Origin: Escherichia coli
GTDB taxonomy: Bacteria; Pseudomonadota; Gammaproteobacteria; Enterobacterales; Enterobacteriaceae
DNA length: 64,000 bases
Assembly: GCF_050320075.1 (NCBI RefSeq)
Contig: NZ_CP190021.1
Strand: one strand, 5' to 3'
Shown here: positions 4,713 through 64,000 of the stretch, in pieces
Layout of the letters: each line of letters begins with the position of its first letter
Position numbering within the stretch: the first letter of the stretch is position 1
Program-made: the position numbers and the translations under genes
The notes under the pieces: model-generated
Told to the model about the DNA's origin: nothing
The model's input: the letters and a program-made list of their open reading frames with translations, nothing else
Database searches by the model: none

Positions 4713-5078
4713 TTTACTCCCCCGCTCCGGCGGGGGTATGGCCTGCCAGGCCGCCGGAAAACCCTGGCAGGCTTACGCCTGCCTGAAATGCAGGAGGGCC
4801 GCGCCTGCGGCGCTGCCCTTCCTGCCCGTCATGGTGTGAGGCATTTTTCTGTTATGTCGTTTCTGTTGTTCTGATTTCCGGAGGCGGGGACACCTTCGGC
4901 TCCCGGCTGCCTGGCGGCATCCGGTCGTCAGGCCCGACTCCGACAGGCAGCTGCTGGCGCACCCGCCAGTCTCCGCCGAACCCGCTGGCGCGGTTTCGGG
5001 CTGCCGCTACGGTCCGATGTCTGAAAAACCAGGCTTGCAGCGACCGTTCCGGTCGCGCCGCCCCTGTCGCGCCGGAAA

Positions 5079-6235: not shown

Positions 6236-6299
6236 TTAACCCTTGCCGTCTGCCTGTGCAGGCGGCAGGATACGTTCAGACATCTCACCAGGAGGAACC

Positions 6300-7238
6300 G
6301 TGAGTCAGAAGAAAACCACCACGACGCCCACGCCGCATGATGCCGCGTTCCGGTCGTTCCTGGCGAATCCCGACGTCGCCAGAGATTTTCTGGAACTGCA
6401 TCTTCCGGCGGAGTACCGGCAGTTGTGCGACCTGTCCACGCTGAAGCTGGAACCCGCCACCTTTGTTGAGCCGGACCTGCATCAGTACGCCAGCGATATC
6501 CTCTGGAGTGTGAAAACCACCGGGGGTGAAGATGGCTATGTTTATACGCTCATCGAGCACCAGAGCACCGAAAATCTGTACATGCCTTTCCGCATGTTAC
6601 GTTACAGTGTGGCGGCGATGCAGAGACATCTGGAGCAGCACAAAACGTTGCCACTGGTGATTCCTGTACTGTTCTATCATGGTGAGCGCAGCCCGTACCC
6701 GTACAGCATGAACTGGCTGGACTGTTTTGAGAATCCGGCACTTGCGGCTAAAATATACACAAAGCCGTTTCCGCTGGTTGATATCACTGTCGTTGATGAC
6801 AATGAAATCATGAACCATCGCCGGATGGCCGCACTGACGCTGCTGATGAAGCATATCCGCCATCGTGACATGATGGAGCTGCTGGACAAACTCCCGCAGG
6901 TCATGGTGGAAATTTCAGACGAGCAGGTGCGTGTTCTGATTCATTACATCGTTAACGCAGGGGACTCTGTATCACCGGAATTTATGCGGGCGCTGGCTGA
7001 GCGTCTGCCGCAGCATGAGGATAAACTGATGACTATCGCAGAACGTCTTGAGCAAAAAGGTCGCCAGGAGGGCAGGATGGAAGGACGCATGGAAGGACGC
7101 ATGGAAGGACGCATGGAAGGAGCGCTTGAAAAAGCCCTGGCTATTGCGTGCCAGCTTCAGAAAATGGGGATGACGCCGGAGCAGATTAAGCAGGCTACCG
7201 GACTTTCCGATGACGAACTGAAGAAAATCACTCACTGA
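6300..7238 (+). CDS. Rpn-family (YhgA-like, PD-(D/E)XK) recombination-promoting nuclease / putative transposase
   Basis: GTG start after AGGAGG RBS; N-terminal HDAAFRSFL..ARDFL and core motifs typical of Rpn/YhgA proteins; C-terminal tail domain after a GRME tandem repeat. Confidence 0.8.
   Translation: MSQKKTTTTPTPHDAAFRSFLANPDVARDFLELHLPAEYRQLCDLSTLKLEPATFVEPDLHQYASDILWSVKTTGGEDGYVYTLIEHQSTENLYMPFRMLRYSVAAMQRHLEQHKTLPLVIPVLFYHGERSPYPYSMNWLDCFENPALAAKIYTKPFPLVDITVVDDNEIMNHRRMAALTLLMKHIRHRDMMELLDKLPQVMVEISDEQVRVLIHYIVNAGDSVSPEFMRALAERLPQHEDKLMTIAERLEQKGRQEGRMEGRMEGRMEGRMEGALEKALAIACQLQKMGMTPEQIKQATGLSDDELKKITH
7071..7118 (+). repeat. in-frame 12-bp tandem repeat x4 (ggacgcatggaa) encoding (GRME)4 in the Rpn linker
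   Basis: Three perfect units plus one imperfect unit read directly from sequence. Confidence 0.9.
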
Positions 7239-7488: not shown

Positions 7489-7740
7489 TCACACATCCTC
7501 TGCCGTTTCCCCCAGTTCATTTTCCAGTCGCCTGATGATATCTGCCTTACGCATCCCCTGCATGTGAGGCAGCAGGTCACGGACTGAAAGTGCCTGGGTG
7601 GTCCTCCAGACGGTGACGTCCACCTGTTCCGCATTTTCCCAGGCGTGCCATGTTCTCTGCGTCACGCCAAATTCTCTGGCCGCTTTTTCGCGTGACCAGA
7701 GCATGCTTTTTCGCCAGATTCGCAGTTCCCAGCCGGTCAT
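7489..7740 (-). CDS. small HTH DNA-binding regulator (83 aa)
   Basis: HTH-like segment REKAAREFGVTQRTWHAWE; promoter region carries twin palindromes. Confidence 0.6.
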   Translation of the reverse strand: MTGWELRIWRKSMLWSREKAAREFGVTQRTWHAWENAEQVDVTVWRTTQALSVRDLLPHMQGMRKADIIRRLENELGETAEDV

Positions 7741-7754
7741 AAAACACCTTTGAA

Positions 7755-7775
7755 AAAGTGAAAAAACTTCACTTT
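7755..7775. promoter_or_regulatory. palindromic operator-like site AAAGTGAA-N5-TTCACTTT (copy 1)
   Basis: Perfect 8-5-8 inverted repeat just upstream of the HTH gene start. Confidence 0.6.
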
Positions 7776-7821
7776 ATTTTATCATCACAATTGCCAAATC
7801 AGCGCGATAAATAAGTGTAAA

Positions 7822-7842
7822 AAAGTGAAGAAATTTCACTTT
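7822..7842. promoter_or_regulatory. palindromic operator-like site AAAGTGAA-N5-TTCACTTT (copy 2)
   Basis: Second identical 8-5-8 inverted repeat 67 bp from copy 1. Confidence 0.6.
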
Positions 7843-7956
7843 TTTTGCTTGTAAATGTCGTGCGGTTTTCTCTGTTTTCACCTGTGCGGGAGTGGTGTGC
7901 CAGTGACCACCACATGCCATTGTTGTGCCGTCGTTTTTCTTCAGTCGCGCCGTATG

Positions 7957-8275
7957 CGGCGCTCCCTGCACACCTTACGGTGTGTAAGGCCACTGCGCCT
8001 GATGGCGCAGCTGTCTCTGCCTGTCTGCCGCCGCACTGCGGCCTGTTCTCCGCAGACGGACTTTCCGGGGGTACATACATGACCACATCCCGTTTCAGTC
8101 GTCCAGGGGGGAGATGTACCAGCCACAAAACTTTTTGCCGCAGGCGTCAAAAACTTTTGCGTCTGCCCCCGGACAACTGCCCCGTGACGTGGTGAGCGTC
8201 CCCCGTCGGAAAGGTCCACTGCGGGGAAATCCCCGAAGACCCGGACGGCAGAAGGAGCTTCGCTCCTCCGGGAAA
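7957..8275 (-). promoter_or_regulatory. conserved structured non-coding element, copy 2
   Basis: Homologous to 5079-5395; directly upstream of ORF 8317. Confidence 0.5.
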
Positions 8276-8316
8276 TGACCTGGCTGTCCCGGCAGTCGTG
8301 ACGATGAGGAGACAAT

Positions 8317-9168
8317 GTGATGAATCAGACTTTACCCACTGCTGACCTGAATACTGCCGGCACGACAGATGTTATTCCGTCTGTGGCTATCGACCGCATC
8401 ATCGCGCAGCGTAACGAAGGTATTGCACTGTTCATGCAGGCGATGGAATGCCTGGCGACAGCGCGCAAGATTCTGCTCGATGCGTCAGGTGATATTTTTC
8501 TTTACGGGTTTGAAGACTGCGTGACTGATTCCGTTCGTCGCATAGATAAACCGGAAGAAGCGAAAAGGAATATCACCCGTCTTGCCGACCGGAAAATCTG
8601 GGACCGCCTGATGACAGATACGGGCATGTACACCTTCATGAGTTCATGCCAGCGTGATGAGTGGAACAGCCAGCTGATGAGCGACACCTGTCCTGAAATC
8701 ACCCTGGACAATGTACTGGCAACATTCCGCCATCTGAATGCCTGCAAGATGCAGACATTTGAACAGGGACTGATTGATGTCTACCGGAAATTGTCATGGG
8801 ATTACAGAACCAATAATCCCTGCCGTCTGGGTAAGAAAATCATTATTGAAAACCTGCTGTACCGCTGGAGTAACGGGCGTGTGACGCTGGACTGCAGCGG
8901 ACGGGAGGCACTGGATGACCTGGTACGTCCGTTTTATCTGCTGGAGGGGCGCAACGTTCCTGACTTCAGGAACAGTATCGGGGCGCAGTATGGTGAATTT
9001 CTCGGGAACGGCGACAATGTCGGTAAGCTGTTAGAAGGGGAATATTTTACGGTGCGTGGCTACCAGAAAGGGACCGTACACATTGTCTTTAAGCGTTCTG
9101 ACCTTGTTGAAAAACTGAATGATATTATTGCACGGCATTATCCAGGTGCATTGCCGCCACGAGTCTGA
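8317..9168 (+). CDS. hypothetical protein (283 aa), last + strand gene of the leading region before oriT
   Basis: ORF with AGGAGA RBS; adjacent GTG and ATG candidate starts at 8317 and 8320; no confidently recognised domain. Confidence 0.6.
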   Translation: MMNQTLPTADLNTAGTTDVIPSVAIDRIIAQRNEGIALFMQAMECLATARKILLDASGDIFLYGFEDCVTDSVRRIDKPEEAKRNITRLADRKIWDRLMTDTGMYTFMSSCQRDEWNSQLMSDTCPEITLDNVLATFRHLNACKMQTFEQGLIDVYRKLSWDYRTNNPCRLGKKIIIENLLYRWSNGRVTLDCSGREALDDLVRPFYLLEGRNVPDFRNSIGAQYGEFLGNGDNVGKLLEGEYFTVRGYQKGTVHIVFKRSDLVEKLNDIIARHYPGALPPRV

Positions 9169-9180
9169 TTAAACAGAAAA

Positions 9181-9210
9181 GCCCTGGTATTTATGCCGGG
9201 GCTTTTTTTT
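9181..9210 (+). terminator. Rho-independent terminator after ORF 8317
   Basis: Hairpin gccctgg-tatttat-gccggggc followed by T8. Confidence 0.7.
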
Positions 9211-9253
9211 CTGTAATCATCATAATCTCAGAACACGATGTGACATTGTCACA

Positions 9254-9595
9254 TCAATTGTTGTTCATATCGATGCCATCTTTCCTGCCTGAATCTGTCT
9301 TTTTAGGTGCTGTTTTAGAGGAAGAACGGCGGGATGGTTTTTTCGATTCTGCTTCCCGAATAATGTCACGAAGTGCCTTCTCTCCTACTTCATACCCTGC
9401 ATTTTTGAGCGTGTCACGAACATCTGCCAGTGTATAACCCTTTGTCCTTACCAGGACAATAATGTCATCACGAATGGCATCAAGAAAATCACGCAATGTT
9501 TTCCGTTGAGCGGTGAGATCTGGCAATTCCGATAAAGCAGCTTTTGCCAGCTGGATGTCATCATCTGAGTAAAATTTTTTAGAAGCCATTGGCAC
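9254..9595 (-). CDS. hypothetical protein with Lys/Arg/Ser-rich basic C-terminal tail (113 aa), possible DNA-binding protein, directly beside oriT
   Basis: ORF on the opposite strand to the other leading-region genes; basic tail ESKKPSRRSSSKTAPKKTDSGRK. Confidence 0.5.
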   Translation of the reverse strand: MPMASKKFYSDDDIQLAKAALSELPDLTAQRKTLRDFLDAIRDDIIVLVRTKGYTLADVRDTLKNAGYEVGEKALRDIIREAESKKPSRRSSSKTAPKKTDSGRKDGIDMNNN

Positions 9596-9647
9596 TTTCT
9601 CTCCGTTTCATGTTGAAGTCTGATTTTATCATCAAAAACTGACTCCT

Positions 9648-9776
9648 GGCAGGGCTGCGCCCTGCCTCTGCCGTCTGCATAAGACTATGATGCACAAAAA
9701 TAACAGGCTATAATGGCCTGAAAAACGGGACAGGATGTGCAATTGTATAACCGCGCACGCGCGATTATACAATTGC
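9648..9776. promoter_or_regulatory. oriT: origin of transfer (oriT) with predicted nick site on the - strand
   Basis: Inverted repeat ggcagggc-tgc-gccctgcc (9648-9666); 12-bp inverted-repeat arms gcaattgtataa/ttatacaattgc (9739-9776); minus-strand core CATCCTG/TCCCG resembling IncP/IncI nick regions, placing the nick near 9730/9731. Confidence 0.7.
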
Positions 9777-9821
9777 CTCCTGGTCAGGGCTTCGCCCCGA
9801 CACCCCAGTAAGGAGCTGACC

Positions 9822-10154
9822 GTGAGTGATAAACGTCAAAGAAGTGGTAGTGAAAGACGGCAAAAGACGATCCTGAGAGCGGTCCGGTTCTCACCGGATG
9901 AGGATGAAACTATCTGTAAGAATGCTGAAGATTCCGGACTTACTGTATCTGCTTACATCCGAAATGCAGCACTGAATAAGCGAATTAACTCCCGTACAGA
10001 TGATGCTTTTCTGAAGGAGTTAATGAGACTGGGAAGGATGCAGAAGCATCTGTTTGTTCAGGGAAAAAGAACCGGTGACAAGGAATACGCAGAAGTGCTT
10101 GTTGCCATAACCGAACTTACAAATACATTGCGTAAACAGTTAATGGAAGGTTGA
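9822..10154 (+). CDS. nikA: relaxosome accessory protein NikA (ribbon-helix-helix, 110 aa)
   Basis: GTG start after AAGGAG RBS, next to oriT and upstream of the relaxase; expected size. Confidence 0.8.
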   Translation: MSDKRQRSGSERRQKTILRAVRFSPDEDETICKNAEDSGLTVSAYIRNAALNKRINSRTDDAFLKELMRLGRMQKHLFVQGKRTGDKEYAEVLVAITELTNTLRKQLMEG

Positions 10155-10164
10155 GGATTCTCCG

Positions 10165-12864
10165 GTGAATGCAGTCATTCCGAAAAAGAGAAGGGACGGC
10201 AAGTCTTCGTTCGAAGACCTGGTATCCTACGTCTCTGTCCGGGATGACATGACCGATGAGGAACTGGATTTATCTTCTTCTTCGCAGGCTGAACAACCGC
10301 ACCGAAGCCGTTTCAGTCGCCTTGTTGATTATGCGACACGTCTTCGAAATGAGTCATTCGTGGCGCTGGTTGATGTCATGAAGGACGGCTGCGAATGGGT
10401 CAACTTTTATGGTGTCACCTGCTTTCATAACTGTACTTCTCTTGAAACTGCCGCTGCAGATATGGAGTACATTGCCCGGCAGGCACACTATGCAAAAGAT
10501 GACACTGACCCTGTTTTTCACTACATCCTTTCCTGGCAGTCACATGAAAGCCCGCGTCCGGAACAGATTTATGACAGTGTACGTCATACGCTGAAATCAC
10601 TCGGCCTTGCCGACCATCAGTATGTCTCTGCCGTGCATACTGATACAGATAATCTGCACGTCCATGTGGCTGTTAACCGGGTACACCCTGAAACGGGTTA
10701 TCTGAACCGGTTATCATGGAGTCAGGAAAAACTCAGTCGTGCCTGCCGTGAGCTTGAACTGAAGCATGGTTTTGCTCCGGATAACGGTTGCTGGGTCCAT
10801 GCGCCGGGAAATCGTATCGTTCGCAAAACTGCCGTTGAACGTGATCGCCAGAACGCCTGGACACGCGGAAAAAAACAAACTTTTCGTGAGTATGTTGCGC
10901 AGACAGCGGTCGCTGGTTTACGCAGTGAACCTGTACATGACTGGTTATCCCTGCATCGTCGTCTTGCGGAAGATGGTCTGTACCTGTCTCAGATGGACGG
11001 AAAATTTCTGGTGATGGATGGCTGGGATCGCAACAGGGAAGGTGTACAGCTTGACTCGTTTGGTCCCTCCTGGTGTGCAGAAAAACTCATGAAAAAAATG
11101 GGTGACTACACGCCAGTGCCAAAAGACATTTTCAGCCAGGTGGAAGCACCAGGACGCTATAATCCGGACTTCATTGCAGCTGATGTTCGCCCGGAAAAAA
11201 TCGCTGAAACAGAAAGTCTGCAGCAGTATGCCTGTCGTCATCTTGGAGAACGTCTGCCGGAAATGGCACGGGAAGGACGGCTGGAAAACTGCCTGGCTAT
11301 TCACCGCACACTGGCTGAAGCGGGATTATGGATGCGTGTTCAGCATGGTCACCTGGTTATCTGTGACGGTTATGATCATAACCAGACTCCCGTTCGTGCT
11401 GACAGCGTATGGTCACTGCTGACGCTCGACAATGTGAATCAACTCGATGGTGGCTGGCAGCCTGTACCAACAGATATTTTCCGCCAGGTTACGCCAACAG
11501 AACGCTTCCGTGGTCGTCGTATGGAGAGCTGTCCTGCGACCGATAAAGAATGGCACCGTATGCGTACAGGTACGGGGCCGCAGGGGGCTATCAAACGCGA
11601 ACTGTTTTCTGACAAAGAAAGTCTGTGGGGATACAGCATCAGCCATTGTAGCCCTCAGATTGAAGAAATGATCACACAGGGTGAGTTTACCTGGCAGCGT
11701 TGTCATGAGTTGTTTGCACAACAGGGACTGATGCTACAGAAACAACATCACGGGCTTGTTGTCGTTGATGCTTTTAATCATGAGCAAACGCCGGTGAAAG
11801 CCAGCAGCATTCATCCTGATCTGACACTGGGGCGTGCGGAGCCACAGGCCGGACCTTTTGTGAGTGCTCCAGCAGATTTGTTTGACAGGGTGCAACCTGA
11901 AAATCGCTATAACCCGGAGCTGGCTGTCAGTGACAGGTACGGGGTCAGCAGTAAACGTGACCCAATGCTGCGCCGGCAGCGACGTGAAGCCAGGGCTGAG
12001 GCCCGTGCTGACCTGCGTGCCCGCTATCTGGCATGGCGTGAACAATGGCGTAAACCGGATCTGCGTTATGGGGAACGTTGTCGGGAAATTCATCAGGCAT
12101 GCCGTCTGCGGAAGTCACACATTCGTGCGCAGTACGATGATCCGGCATTACGTAAGCTGCATTATCACATTGCAGAAGTTCAGCGAATGCAGGCATTGAT
12201 CAGGCTGAAAGAAGACATCAGGGATGAGCGACAGAAACTTATTGCTGACGGGAAATGGTATCCACCCTCTTACCGTCAGTGGGTCGAAATTCAGGCTGCT
12301 CAGGGAGACAGGGCTGCTGTATCGCAGTTGAGAGGCTGGGATTATCGCGATCGCCGTAAAGACAAGTCACGCACAACGACGACAGACCGCTGTGTCGTGC
12401 TTTGTGAACCGGGCGGAACGCCGGTATACGGTAATACCGGTGATCTCGAGGCCCGTCTGCAGAAGAACGGGAGTGTTCGTTTCCGTGACCGTCGGACGGG
12501 AGAGTTTGTCTGTACGGATTATGGTGACAGAGTTGTTTTCCGTAATCACCATGACCGCAATGCGCTGGCAGATAAACTGGATTTGATTGCACCGGTATTA
12601 TTCGGGCGTGATCCACGCATGGGGTTTGAACCAGAAGGAAACGACAAACAATTTAACCAGGTCTTTGCTGAAATGGTTGCCTGGCATAATGTGACAGGCC
12701 GTACCGGTCACGAAGACTACAGGATTACGCGACCGGACGTGGATCATCACCGTGAAGGAAGTGAACGCTACTACCGCGATTATATCGCGGCGAACAGCAA
12801 CGATGACGCATCACTGCCTCCGCCGGAGCAGGATAAACGCTGGGAACCGCCTTCTCCAGGTTAA
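10165..12864 (+). CDS. nikB: conjugative relaxase NikB (899 aa)
   Basis: Relaxase histidine triad HTDTDNLHVHVAVN; size and position match the IncI1 relaxase. Confidence 0.9.
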   Translation: MNAVIPKKRRDGKSSFEDLVSYVSVRDDMTDEELDLSSSSQAEQPHRSRFSRLVDYATRLRNESFVALVDVMKDGCEWVNFYGVTCFHNCTSLETAAADMEYIARQAHYAKDDTDPVFHYILSWQSHESPRPEQIYDSVRHTLKSLGLADHQYVSAVHTDTDNLHVHVAVNRVHPETGYLNRLSWSQEKLSRACRELELKHGFAPDNGCWVHAPGNRIVRKTAVERDRQNAWTRGKKQTFREYVAQTAVAGLRSEPVHDWLSLHRRLAEDGLYLSQMDGKFLVMDGWDRNREGVQLDSFGPSWCAEKLMKKMGDYTPVPKDIFSQVEAPGRYNPDFIAADVRPEKIAETESLQQYACRHLGERLPEMAREGRLENCLAIHRTLAEAGLWMRVQHGHLVICDGYDHNQTPVRADSVWSLLTLDNVNQLDGGWQPVPTDIFRQVTPTERFRGRRMESCPATDKEWHRMRTGTGPQGAIKRELFSDKESLWGYSISHCSPQIEEMITQGEFTWQRCHELFAQQGLMLQKQHHGLVVVDAFNHEQTPVKASSIHPDLTLGRAEPQAGPFVSAPADLFDRVQPENRYNPELAVSDRYGVSSKRDPMLRRQRREARAEARADLRARYLAWREQWRKPDLRYGERCREIHQACRLRKSHIRAQYDDPALRKLHYHIAEVQRMQALIRLKEDIRDERQKLIADGKWYPPSYRQWVEIQAAQGDRAAVSQLRGWDYRDRRKDKSRTTTTDRCVVLCEPGGTPVYGNTGDLEARLQKNGSVRFRDRRTGEFVCTDYGDRVVFRNHHDRNALADKLDLIAPVLFGRDPRMGFEPEGNDKQFNQVFAEMVAWHNVTGRTGHEDYRITRPDVDHHREGSERYYRDYIAANSNDDASLPPPEQDKRWEPPSPG

Positions 12865-17482: not shown

Positions 17483-17770
17483 GACAAAGTCTCCATTTCT
17501 GGAATTTAAATCAAACGGAAAGGTTAAAAATTTATTTGCAGGCGATAAGAGCTAACCAGAGGAATTAGCCGTGTGATAAAAGGATTGTTGCAGATACGAA
17601 AGTCGTTAGAATAGCTGCGGGCGCTTGAGGCTGTATGCCGAAAGCGTTTTGTGGACGGTATACAGCAGAAAGCCCCTGGAGATTTTTTTATCAATCAACC
17701 AAGGGCTCTACTGTAATGCCTAGACAACATTATAGTAGCCCGATAACCGCCGTAAGGCAATGGAGGGGCT

Positions 17771-17926
17771 ATGATGCCACAGCGAACGTTTTTAATGATG
17801 TTAATCGTCATCTGTGTGACGATTCTGTGTTTTGTCTGGATGGTGAGGGATTCGCTTTGCGGACTCCGGCTCCAGCAGGGAAACACAGTGCTTGTGGCAA
17901 CGTTAGCCTACGAAGTTAAACGTTAA
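17771..17926 (+). CDS. pndA: Hok-family type I toxin PndA (51 aa), absent from the ORF track because it is under 60 aa
   Basis: Translation MMPQRTFLMMLIVICVTILCFVWMVRDSLCGLRLQQGNTVLVATLAYEVKR has the Hok/PndA architecture (transmembrane helix plus conserved Cys); GGAGG RBS; an overlapping upstream frame (17635-17919) fits a mok/pndC-like reading frame. Confidence 0.85.
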   Translation: MMPQRTFLMMLIVICVTILCFVWMVRDSLCGLRLQQGNTVLVATLAYEVKR

Positions 17927-17966: not shown

Positions 17967-18402
17967 CGAAGGCTGACCTCATTGCGCCCTTTCTTCTTCA
18001 ATGAAGCGTATCCGGTATTGTTTCATTTCCCCTGAAGCCGATTAGCTCCAGCCGAATGCCTTTGCCATCCGGGGCCACGTTCTGCATTTCGCAGATACCA
18101 CGTCGGGTCATGAGTGTGAAGGCTGTCATTGCCAGCATGGCTAACGCATTTTCCTCGCTTCCGCTGCGTTTCTCGAGAGCATCGGCAATTTATTCTATGC
18201 TCCCCACCTGAAAGCAAGAGTCGAATTCTTTACTCCACTTTTCTGACATCGGATTTTCTCTCTGTATTTATGGGTAGTTATCGAACTGAATGTGCCAGTT
18301 TTTTCAGGAGACGGCAAAGTTGAGATGGTTGGTTCTGATTCAAAGCATGAGTTTCCCCGGTGTGACGGGCATGTCGGGCGGATTTTGAGAAACAACAGAT
18401 GT

Positions 18403-18433
18403 AAAAAAACCGACTGGTGAGGTCGGTTTTTTT
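18403..18433. terminator. bidirectional Rho-independent terminator
   Basis: A-run, hairpin aaccgac-tggtgag-gtcggtt, then T7. Confidence 0.7.
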
Positions 18434-18457
18434 ACTGTTCCGTTACAGAGTGGGTGG

Positions 18458-18489
18458 CTCTGGTCGGAAAAGAACTGTCTATAACTGAC
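18458..18489 (+). repeat. 32-bp direct repeat, copy 1 (ctctggtcggaaaagaactgtctataactgac)
   Basis: Matches 18646-18677 at 31 of 32 positions. Confidence 0.9.
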
Positions 18490-62892: not shown

Positions 62893-63230
62893 AGCAAAGG
62901 TCTCCGATGACAACTAAAAACGCTATCACCGAGTTCCTACGCTCATTGGTGATAGCCCAGACGGGGGTAGGAATACCGGCGTCATCGGAAACCGGCCAGG
63001 CTAATGCCTGCCCCGCCTGAGCTACCATAGATGACGACAAGAAATACAAGTTCCTGTCTTTATGGTATGGCAAAAAACGACGCCAAATGAAGAAATTAAC
63101 TTCTGCGCCGACGATGACTACGCGGGTTCCTACGCCCGATCACAGTTTTGCCTGTGACCAGTAAAGGGTACTTAGTATAACGCACCGAGTCAACTAACAG
63201 CTTAAAAAACATACAAAAAAGCGTCAAAAC

Positions 63231-63884: not shown

Positions 63885-63950
63885 AAGGAAAACCCCCACT
63901 ATCTTTCTTACGAACTTGGCGGAACGACGAAAGATAGTGGGGGCCTCACA
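63885..63950 (-). ncRNA. candidate antisense Inc RNA of an IncI/IncB-type replicon, complementary to the repZ-leader stem-loop I; rep genes would lie beyond the window end
   Basis: + strand stem cccccactatcttt / aaagatagtggggg (63893-63943) with a 23-nt loop containing TTGGCG, the recalled target-loop motif of ColIb-P9-type copy control. Confidence 0.4.
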
Positions 63951-64000
63951 GAATACGGGTAAAGTATAATGAAACCGTACCAGAGATTCAACCCTGTGCA

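Follow-up and report, generated by a model that had tools for sequence, protein, structure and literature searches.

YggA, encoded beside oriT in IncI1-type plasmids, is a probable StbA/TraK-type DNA-binding protein and a candidate repressor of the divergent yggA and nikAB promoters

Background

What is the function of the small gene that lies next to the transfer origin (oriT) of IncI1-type plasmids and is read away from it? The question is raised here by a contig of Escherichia coli (NZ_CP190021.1, RefSeq assembly GCF_050320075.1), of which a stretch of 64,000 nucleotides, hereafter the window, was analysed. The window belongs to an IncI1-type plasmid and carries on its minus strand, across oriT from the relaxosome genes nikA and nikB, a gene named yggA in R64-type annotations. 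A first-pass annotation made from the sequence alone had drawn attention to the basic, histone-like tail of its product and had proposed two roles for it, either as an accessory protein of the relaxosome or as a nucleoid-associated (stealth) protein.

The gene is already known: it is catalogued, it has a studied homologue and it is included in the IncK2 core genome. What is new here is the assignment of its product to the helix-turn-helix (HTH) proteins of the StbA/TraK type, its partner-less architecture in plasmids with a type I mating-pair formation system (MPF-I) and a concrete candidate operator. Published surveys located the StbA family in plasmids of MOB groups F11, P11, P6 and P13/14, mostly with MPF-T, and did not include IncI1; our literature search found no paper linking YggA to StbA/TraK.

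Results and discussion

Homology of YggA to StbA and TraK

The gene and the two parts of its product are delimited as follows.

9254..9589, minus strand: yggA coding sequence, 111 aa, single-gene unit, annotated as WP_000157095.1 from an ATG start.
9344..9577, minus strand: conserved helical domain, residues ~5-82, with helices at 9-20, 32-48, 54-63 and 70-82; homologue of the StbA-type tri-helical HTH.
9257..9343, minus strand: disordered Lys/Arg/Ser-rich tail, residues 83-111, recognised from predicted local distance difference test (pLDDT) scores, composition, the ratio of nonsynonymous to synonymous substitution rates (dN/dS) and alignment.

A profile of close homologues searched against 1.8 billion representatives retrieved 110 clusters of small proteins (~90-150 aa), from which a family alignment of 74 sequences was drawn. 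Compared with the sequences of the Protein Data Bank (PDB), the 74-member profile found StbA of plasmid R388 as its best match (7pc1_A, E 7.4e-5), followed by the RpoN-box HTH of sigma-54. The alignment of the family with the StbA family by hhalign reached 91.6% probability (E 8.3e-7) and placed YggA residues 11-90 on StbA residues 3-77, thus spanning the whole DNA-binding domain of StbA. The two families are connected by a group of bridge sequences, which hhalign joins to the core YggA group with 99.6% probability (E 6e-25) and to StbA with 95.4% (E 1.7e-8). YggA and StbA are only ~18-21% identical, and a word-indexed search of proteins with a fragment of StbA (58 aa) yielded just two. TraK of RP4, placed in the StbA family by PSI-BLAST (Guynet 2011), matches the YggA family profile marginally (17 bits; hhalign 35%).

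The AlphaFold2 (AF2) model of YggA is all-helical, and its helix 70-82 is the presumed recognition helix. YggA has the N-terminal tri-helical HTH, homologous to StbA residues 1-75, by which members of the StbA/TraK superfamily are recognised, and it is an orphan, shortened and distant relative within this superfamily. We regard it as very probably a DNA-binding protein of the StbA/TraK type.

The carboxy-terminal motifs of the known members (LGDKYL…RPIF in StbA, GF.V/F…PD.EDL in the TraK type) are absent from YggA, which ends in …GRKDGIDMNNN, and the core group shares no C-terminal motif. The bridge members often end in an acidic GF.V(R)PD.EDL motif resembling the end of RP4 TraK, GGFTFDATPKKEDLL; this ending was seen in the distant relatives L010, L015, L016, L017 and their kin, and also in L018 (2501-2899). 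It may be a peptide contacting the partner ATPase, absent from the ATPase-less YggA group.

Domain catalogues gave little information on this protein. Scans of YggA against Pfam, NCBIfam and PADLOC produced sub-threshold noise only, and a Pfam scan of all 74 relatives revealed no consistent family. The Prokaryotic Genome Annotation Pipeline (PGAP) names the product 'molybdopterin-guanine dinucleotide biosynthesis protein MobC' in over 1,000 plasmid records, an identity that we reject since there is no Pfam or NCBIfam match of any kind and the transfer-origin context is unrelated to it. The label has evidently been mis-propagated through a collision between Mob for mobilisation and Mob for molybdenum cofactor, and we flag it as a systematic mis-annotation affecting well over a thousand plasmid records. 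MobC is in use as a mobilisation name for relatives in IncL/M plasmids and pTF-FC2. A ribbon-helix-helix identity of the PF05713 MobC type was also rejected, as no match was obtained at E<=1, none occurred among the 74 relatives and the model is all-helical; with the MobC accessory proteins of that family (ColE1 MbeC / pC221 MobC type), YggA has only the name in common.

Extent of the gene and selective constraint

The first-pass annotation had delimited the gene as the 113-aa open reading frame (ORF) at 9254-9595, which on the minus strand begins with a GTG. The reading frame is confirmed, but not its start: RefSeq begins the protein at the ATG at 9589, and this codon is kept in the 74%-identical IncB/O/K/Z homologue (L007), where the alternative GTG at 9595 is not kept. 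The region is highly uniform among close relatives, positions 9100-9900 being identical (100%) to many IncI1/Iγ plasmids, with matches in 2,199 plasmid records, and positions 9560-9740 being 100% identical to ColIb-P9.

Substitutions were compared with the IncB/O/K/Z homologue. Over residues 1-82, the proportion of nonsynonymous differences (pN) is 0.14 and synonymous sites are saturated (proportion of synonymous differences, pS, 0.82); owing to this disparity, the substitution pattern identifies yggA as a genuine gene whose residues 1-82 are under strong purifying selection. In the tail codons dN/dS is 0.6-0.9, indicating near-neutral drift.

The tail (ESKKPSRRSSSKTAPKKTDSGRKDGIDMNNN) has the Lys/Arg/Ser-rich character attributed to it at first reading, with a net charge of +6, 31% K/R and 83% K/R/S/T/P/A/G/Q/N, and is predicted to be disordered (pLDDT ~43-55). 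In the 74-sequence alignment, the tail sequence varies while its composition is maintained family-wide, as a short basic low-complexity stretch following the domain, and the mean net tail charge in the core YggA group is +3.7. The natural yggA variants P0019, P0020, P0045 and P0053 have frameshifted or replaced tails and an intact N-terminal domain, which fits a weak constraint on the tail sequence.

Position relative to oriT and conservation of the locus

The layout of the locus depends on the following elements on the nikA side of yggA.

9726..9739, minus strand: nick region, CACATCCTG followed by TCCCG; MOBP motif, kept in all related loci.
9739..9776: 18-nt inverted repeat of the oriT core, found by repeat search, which we take to be the NikA-binding repeat of R64-type oriT reported in published R64 work.
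9783..9802: second oriT inverted repeat, GTCAGGGC-TTC-GCCCCGAC, kept in all MOBP12/13-type loci.
9822..10154, plus strand: nikA, 110 aa, ribbon-helix-helix relaxosome accessory protein (Pfam NikA-like, 1.3e-21, and annotation).
10165..12864, plus strand: nikB, MOBP relaxase (ORF listing and annotation).

The predicted nick falls between 9731 and 9730 of the minus strand and is separated from the 18-nt repeat by 8 bp, the spacing rule established for RP4, whose oriT has the nick motif, the 8-bp spacing and the inverted repeat in common with that of IncI1. The assignments of the nick site and of the NikA repeat rest on the conserved MOBP motif, the oriT coordinates of pESBL and these parallels with RP4. 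The minimal oriT mapped in the IncI1 plasmid pESBL corresponds to ~9726-9808, with its left edge at the nick region. The gene had first been described as starting about 50 bp from the oriT inverted repeats; this distance has to be corrected, the 18-nt repeat being 150 bp away and the minimal oriT 137 bp. The repeat that does lie 53-59 bp from the yggA start is a separate element at 9648-9666, outside the minimal oriT and overlapping the predicted -35 hexamer.

The gene is divergent from nikA/nikB across oriT and opposite to most genes of the leading region, as had been noted, but it is not the only minus-strand gene there, since the HTH gene located at 7489-7740 and two annotated ORFs of small size share its orientation. 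The MOBP nick motif lies on the minus strand, which is accordingly the one transferred; this is also the sense strand of yggA, and by the logic of Guynet 2011 no other gene reaches the recipient earlier. The statement that it can be transcribed only after synthesis of the complementary strand was correct.

This arrangement is shared by all family members for which upstream DNA was available, in contexts covering IncB/O/K/Z, the IncL/M plasmid R1215, an Edwardsiella plasmid and seven metagenomic contigs: the gene is always transcribed divergently from genes for a NikA-like ribbon-helix-helix protein and a MOBP relaxase. A first gene 3' of nic, reading away from oriT and divergent from the accessory gene, is also found in R388-like, IncI2 and IncP-1 plasmids. 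A ParA/CbiA-type ATPase gene follows in two of the three bridge members with downstream sequence (L010 and L017, not L015), and the layout of these two is that of stbA-stbB and traK-traL. The core YggA group has no StbB/TraL ATPase, the gene being followed by a convergent DUF4942 or DUF932 gene; in the window, yggA precedes a terminator-like element and a convergent DUF4942 gene, with no StbB partner.

The comparison with the two characterised relatives can thus be made at the level of both protein and locus. StbA (R388, IncW, PDB 7PC1) resembles YggA in its N-terminal tri-helical HTH, in the basic or disordered stretch after the recognition helix and in its location, stbA too being the first gene 3' of nic and facing away from oriT, back to back with the relaxase-accessory gene. 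Unlike YggA, it is ~140 aa long with the conserved C-terminal motif given above, its gene is the first of a stbABC operon in which a ParA-like ATPase is also encoded, its binding sites are arrays of 9-bp direct repeats and plasmid stability requires it, whereas YggA is dispensable for maintenance. TraK (RP4/RK2, IncP-1) likewise adjoins oriT and is divergent from a ribbon-helix-helix gene, traJ; it differs from YggA in being a relaxosome auxiliary protein, in being followed by traL (ATPase) and traM, and in its C-terminal end.

Promoters and candidate operator

Four elements were delimited in the intergenic region between yggA and nikA.

9623..9652, minus strand: predicted yggA promoter, with the -35 CTGCCA at 9652-9647, an 18-nt spacer and an extended -10 TGATAAAAT (-10 at 9628-9623), from a consensus scan.
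9648..9666: perfect 8-bp inverted repeat GGCAGGGC-N3-GCCCTGCC, candidate operator, with a further GGCAG before the repeat on the minus strand.
9647..9696: most conserved block of the yggA-nikA intergenic region, comprising the inverted repeat, GGCAG repeats and TGTGCATCAT, between the divergent promoters.
9709..9714, plus strand: candidate nikAB -10 TATAAT, by direct reading of the sequence, kept in L007 and L009.

The predicted yggA promoter lies 30-60 bp upstream of the gene and its layout is repeated in L007 (CTGACA…TAGAAT) and in the more distant L009 (CTGCCA…TATTAT). The candidate operator is the sole exact match to GGCAGGGC-N3-GCCCTGCC in the window. In three lineages an inverted repeat overlaps the yggA -35, and one of these shows compensatory changes: at the equivalent place L009 has GGCAGTGT-GGG-ACACTGCC, three compensatory base changes away, with the same -35. 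A search for intergenic copies of intermediate divergence for a covariation test yielded too few variants.

Between IncI1 and IncB/O/K/Z, the 50 nt of the 9647-9696 block are 92% identical, as against 68% for the whole intergenic region, 77% for the nick region and 66% for the NikA repeat. The block has stayed at this level though yggA synonymous sites are saturated between the same lineages. The contrast between a conserved block and a diverged NikA repeat parallels that between the proteins, YggA being 74% identical and NikA 43%.

The candidate nikAB -10 is located ~16 nt before the nick site and abuts the conserved block; it has no good -35. By analogy with traJp of RP4, whose traJ transcript begins 24 nt before nic, transcription of nikAB would run through nic.

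Sequence motifs in the block were compared with those of relatives. One TGCATCAT, which forms the core of the repeat bound by StbA of R388 (C/TTGCATCAT), occurs at 9687-9694 on the minus strand, between nic and yggA; its enrichment in the window is not significant (7 matches against 3.9 expected) and its presence in the block is probably due to chance. IncL/M plasmids have GGCAGGCAG just upstream of the orf35 promoter, where GCATCAT also recurs (L002, ~4945-4952). Motifs of the GGCAG type seem enriched relative to dinucleotide shuffles, although nearly all one-mismatch matches are intragenic and codon bias is not kept by such shuffles.

A direct repeat of ~26 bp brackets the oriT core, at 9637-9662 and 9771-9797, and pairs the candidate operator repeat and its flank with the second oriT inverted repeat; there is an 8-bp inverted repeat within each copy. 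Every MOBP12/13-type oriT examined keeps the copy on the right, which reads GGGGTGTCGGGGCGAAGCCCTGACCAGG on the minus strand, and the left copy is at the yggA promoter, outside the mapped minimal oriT. This left copy may serve as an operator, may form a hairpin in the single strand at the leading 5' end, or may mimic the termination repeat as a decoy.

Phenotypes of yggA and its relatives

The functional data available from published work concern both yggA itself and its homologues. Transposon insertion sequencing (Tn-seq) of pESBL gave yggA a probability of 0.99 of being non-essential, 0.00 of being required for maintenance and 0.01 for transfer, oriT, nikA and nikB scoring 0.72-1.00 as required. 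Insertions in pMS7163B_00750, the positional homologue of yggA, were neutral as well (log fold change +0.47). Another gene of pMS7163B, '950', in which a chloramphenicol cassette insertion abolishes conjugation, was considered as the homologue and rejected, being located at 83356-83577, far from nikA.

[quoted passage not shown] By tblastn, YggA is 38-44% identical to IncL/M products over its N-terminal 76 residues, the authors of the pCTX-M3 study reported 32/53% between Orf35 and R64 YggA, and profile searches reached E values down to 1e-19 for the related clusters. The two have in common their size class, a basic tail, their position as the first leading-region gene, divergent from nikA across oriT, and their dispensability for self-transfer, known for yggA from the IncI Tn-seq data. 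In the orf35::cat mutant, nikA, nikB and traH mRNA rose 40-, 23- and 80-fold, and mobilisation rose >100-fold; constructs simply lacking orf35 were 100-1000-fold better mobilisers. In IncI1, nikAB forms a separate two-gene operon; in pCTX-M3 it is joined to the tra operon (type IV secretion), so that repression there controls the whole transfer apparatus. The repressor phenotype was measured for Orf35 only. The pCTX-M3 authors saw no DNA-binding motif in the protein, and the StbA-type HTH assignment is made here.

The superfamily relatives also act as negative regulators. StbA attaches to direct repeats lying between nic and stbA and acts as a repressor of its own promoter and of others in the leading region; it lowers conjugation 50-fold and is needed for plasmid positioning. 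TraK binds ~200 bp of DNA next to oriT, on the nic-proximal leading side, and both of the divergent promoters there, traJp and traKp, are under its repression; our proposal for YggA follows this example.

A proposed repressor of the divergent yggA and nikAB promoters

Taken together, these data lead us to favour, by a modest measure, the view that YggA represses both its own promoter and the divergent promoter of nikAB, a proposal resting on homology, synteny, the conserved block and the published phenotypes of homologues. Its HTH would bind the 50-bp block at 9647-9696, which contains the inverted repeat and GGCAG repeats, overlaps the yggA -35 and is followed closely, on the nikA side, by the candidate nikAB promoter. 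Binding there would repress both promoters, providing autoregulation together with negative control of nikA and nikB, and the basic tail would add non-specific contacts with DNA. The binding site, the repression in IncI1 and the role of the tail are what we infer in this model. Since the incoming strand cannot be read for yggA, expression would begin only after complementary-strand synthesis, and the model predicts an unrepressed burst in a new transconjugant followed by shut-down. The repressor model would explain the fixed position and orientation of the gene, its neutrality for self-transfer, the orf35 data and the conserved block; neutral insertions fit it because the loss of a repressor would not limit self-transfer.

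Several observations speak against this proposal and the homology under it. Taken by itself, the core YggA profile is a weak match to StbA (hmmsearch E 0.04-3, hhalign 66%), so that the YggA-StbA link depends on the bridge sequences and on a structural model of modest confidence (pLDDT 63-67); a Foldseek search gave no match, and HTH folds are common generally. No StbA-like array of direct repeats (stbDR-like, in an 11-bp register) was found in the promoter region of yggA, and the block may have been conserved for other reasons, as part of the promoters, as a site for a host factor or as a hairpin formed in single-stranded DNA and akin to the oriT repeat. As complementation of orf35::cat was weak, its phenotype might be partly a cis effect of the cassette, and polarity artefacts of cassettes are documented in this region of an I-complex plasmid. 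Finally, the pay-off of repression is less obvious in IncI1 than in IncM, since nikAB is not fused to tra.

The alternative that best withstands these data is that YggA acts as an architectural accessory of the relaxosome in the manner of TraK, wrapping oriT-proximal DNA and stimulating nicking or transfer. RP4 TraK, of the same superfamily, is such an auxiliary and forms its nucleoprotein complex on ~200 bp beside nic, where YggA occupies the corresponding position, and a basic tail would suit the wrapping of DNA. However, yggA insertions are neutral for transfer in pESBL and pMS7163B, whereas oriT, nikA and nikB of pESBL are required; in pCTX-M3, orf35 can be dispensed with and mobilisation rises when it is lost; the mapped minimal oriT excludes the segment from nic to yggA; and TraK itself is only a marginal match to the family profile. 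We therefore consider this role unlikely. With regard to the accessory function first proposed for the gene, the idea of an oriT-linked DNA-binding protein stands, through StbA/TraK homology and fixed position, but a required part of the relaxosome is unlikely, in view of the neutral insertions and of the behaviour of Orf35 as a negative regulator.

Still less probable is a role as an StbA-like adaptor for positioning or segregation, which would tether the plasmid to the nucleoid and balance vertical stability against transfer. R388 StbA does this through its HTH domain and a non-conserved C-terminal region, to which the domain and variable tail of YggA could be compared; against this, the maintenance score of yggA in pESBL is nil, IncI plasmids have their own par system, no StbB partner is present in the window and no stbS-like array of ten direct repeats was found.

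The suggestion of a nucleoid-associated stealth protein, coating DNA in general and silencing plasmid or host genes non-specifically through its histone-like tail, agrees with a tail that is Lys/Arg/Ser-rich and disordered with APKK-type motifs, but it is very improbable: YggA resembles neither H-NS, HU, Hha nor other nucleoid-protein families, purifying selection acts on a specific tri-helical HTH while the tail, a family-wide extension after the recognition helix, drifts, and a location next to oriT that stays the same in distant plasmids suggests a local role. Equally improbable is an establishment factor of the recipient, or even a protein delivered by the type IVB system with its positively charged, disordered C-terminus as export signal, since, although yggA enters first and cannot be transcribed from the incoming single strand, two Tn-seq screens with a transconjugant read-out showed no establishment defect, an orientation away from oriT is the norm of the family (stbA and traK included) and nothing points to translocation.

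Other features of the neighbourhood

Downstream of yggA, an A-tract, a GC hairpin and a T-tract form a terminator-like element.

9178..9212: bidirectional terminator-like element, read from the sequence and shared by yggA and the convergent DUF4942 gene.

A second perfect hairpin at 9237-9255 overlaps the yggA stop codon, and the combined RNA fold has a z score of -6.5; an Rfam scan of the yggA region found no RNA. Further into the leading region, a non-coding stretch of ~570 bp (7750-8316) lies upstream of the DUF4942 gene, and the minus-strand gene at 7489-7740 encodes a small XRE-type HTH protein; the equivalent neighbourhood in the distant relative L009 contains an HTH/Gp49 (HigB-like) pair. 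The plus-strand ORF at 6243-7238 encodes a recombination-promoting nuclease of the Rpn family (Transposase_31) with an (Q/M)EGR tandem peptide repeat (x5) near its C-terminus, and a repetitive mirror-image ORF lies on the opposite strand. Elsewhere in the window, Rfam matches at gathering score were obtained for a sok antitoxin RNA of the pnd system (17619-17776), an AgrB-like antisense RNA adjoining a DinQ-like toxin gene (18401-18488, minus strand), a C4 antisense RNA (62945-63032, minus strand) and the repZ regulatory pseudoknot (63885-64000), which is cut by the window end.

Conclusions

With the StbA-type HTH described here, Orf35 would have the DNA-binding domain that escaped the pCTX-M3 authors, and this assignment extends the StbA/TraK family to MPF-I plasmids, indicating that an HTH protein of this type can persist without its ATPase partner. 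A broader and more speculative reading, which we hold to be doubtful though worth stating, is that YggA is a stripped-down, StbB-independent StbA serving as the master brake on relaxosome supply in the MPF-I plasmids (IncI1, B/O/K/Z and L/M), where it would coat the segment from nic to yggA, in which the oriT termination repeat is nearly duplicated, and would thereby control how far nikAB is transcribed as well as how accessible oriT is; being encoded on the transferred strand, it would work as a built-in delay timer. If this were true, each transconjugant would experience a burst of relaxase before shut-off, and deletion of yggA would turn IncI1 plasmids into hyper-mobilisers of many small Col plasmids having only nikA and oriT.

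IncI1, other I-complex and IncL/M plasmids are major carriers of genes for extended-spectrum beta-lactamases (ESBLs) and for carbapenemases and also mobilise small oriT-bearing plasmids. In IncM, removal of the homologue is known to give 100-1000-fold more efficient donors; if YggA represses nikAB, it would set the amount of relaxase available for the mobilisation of small plasmids by IncI1.

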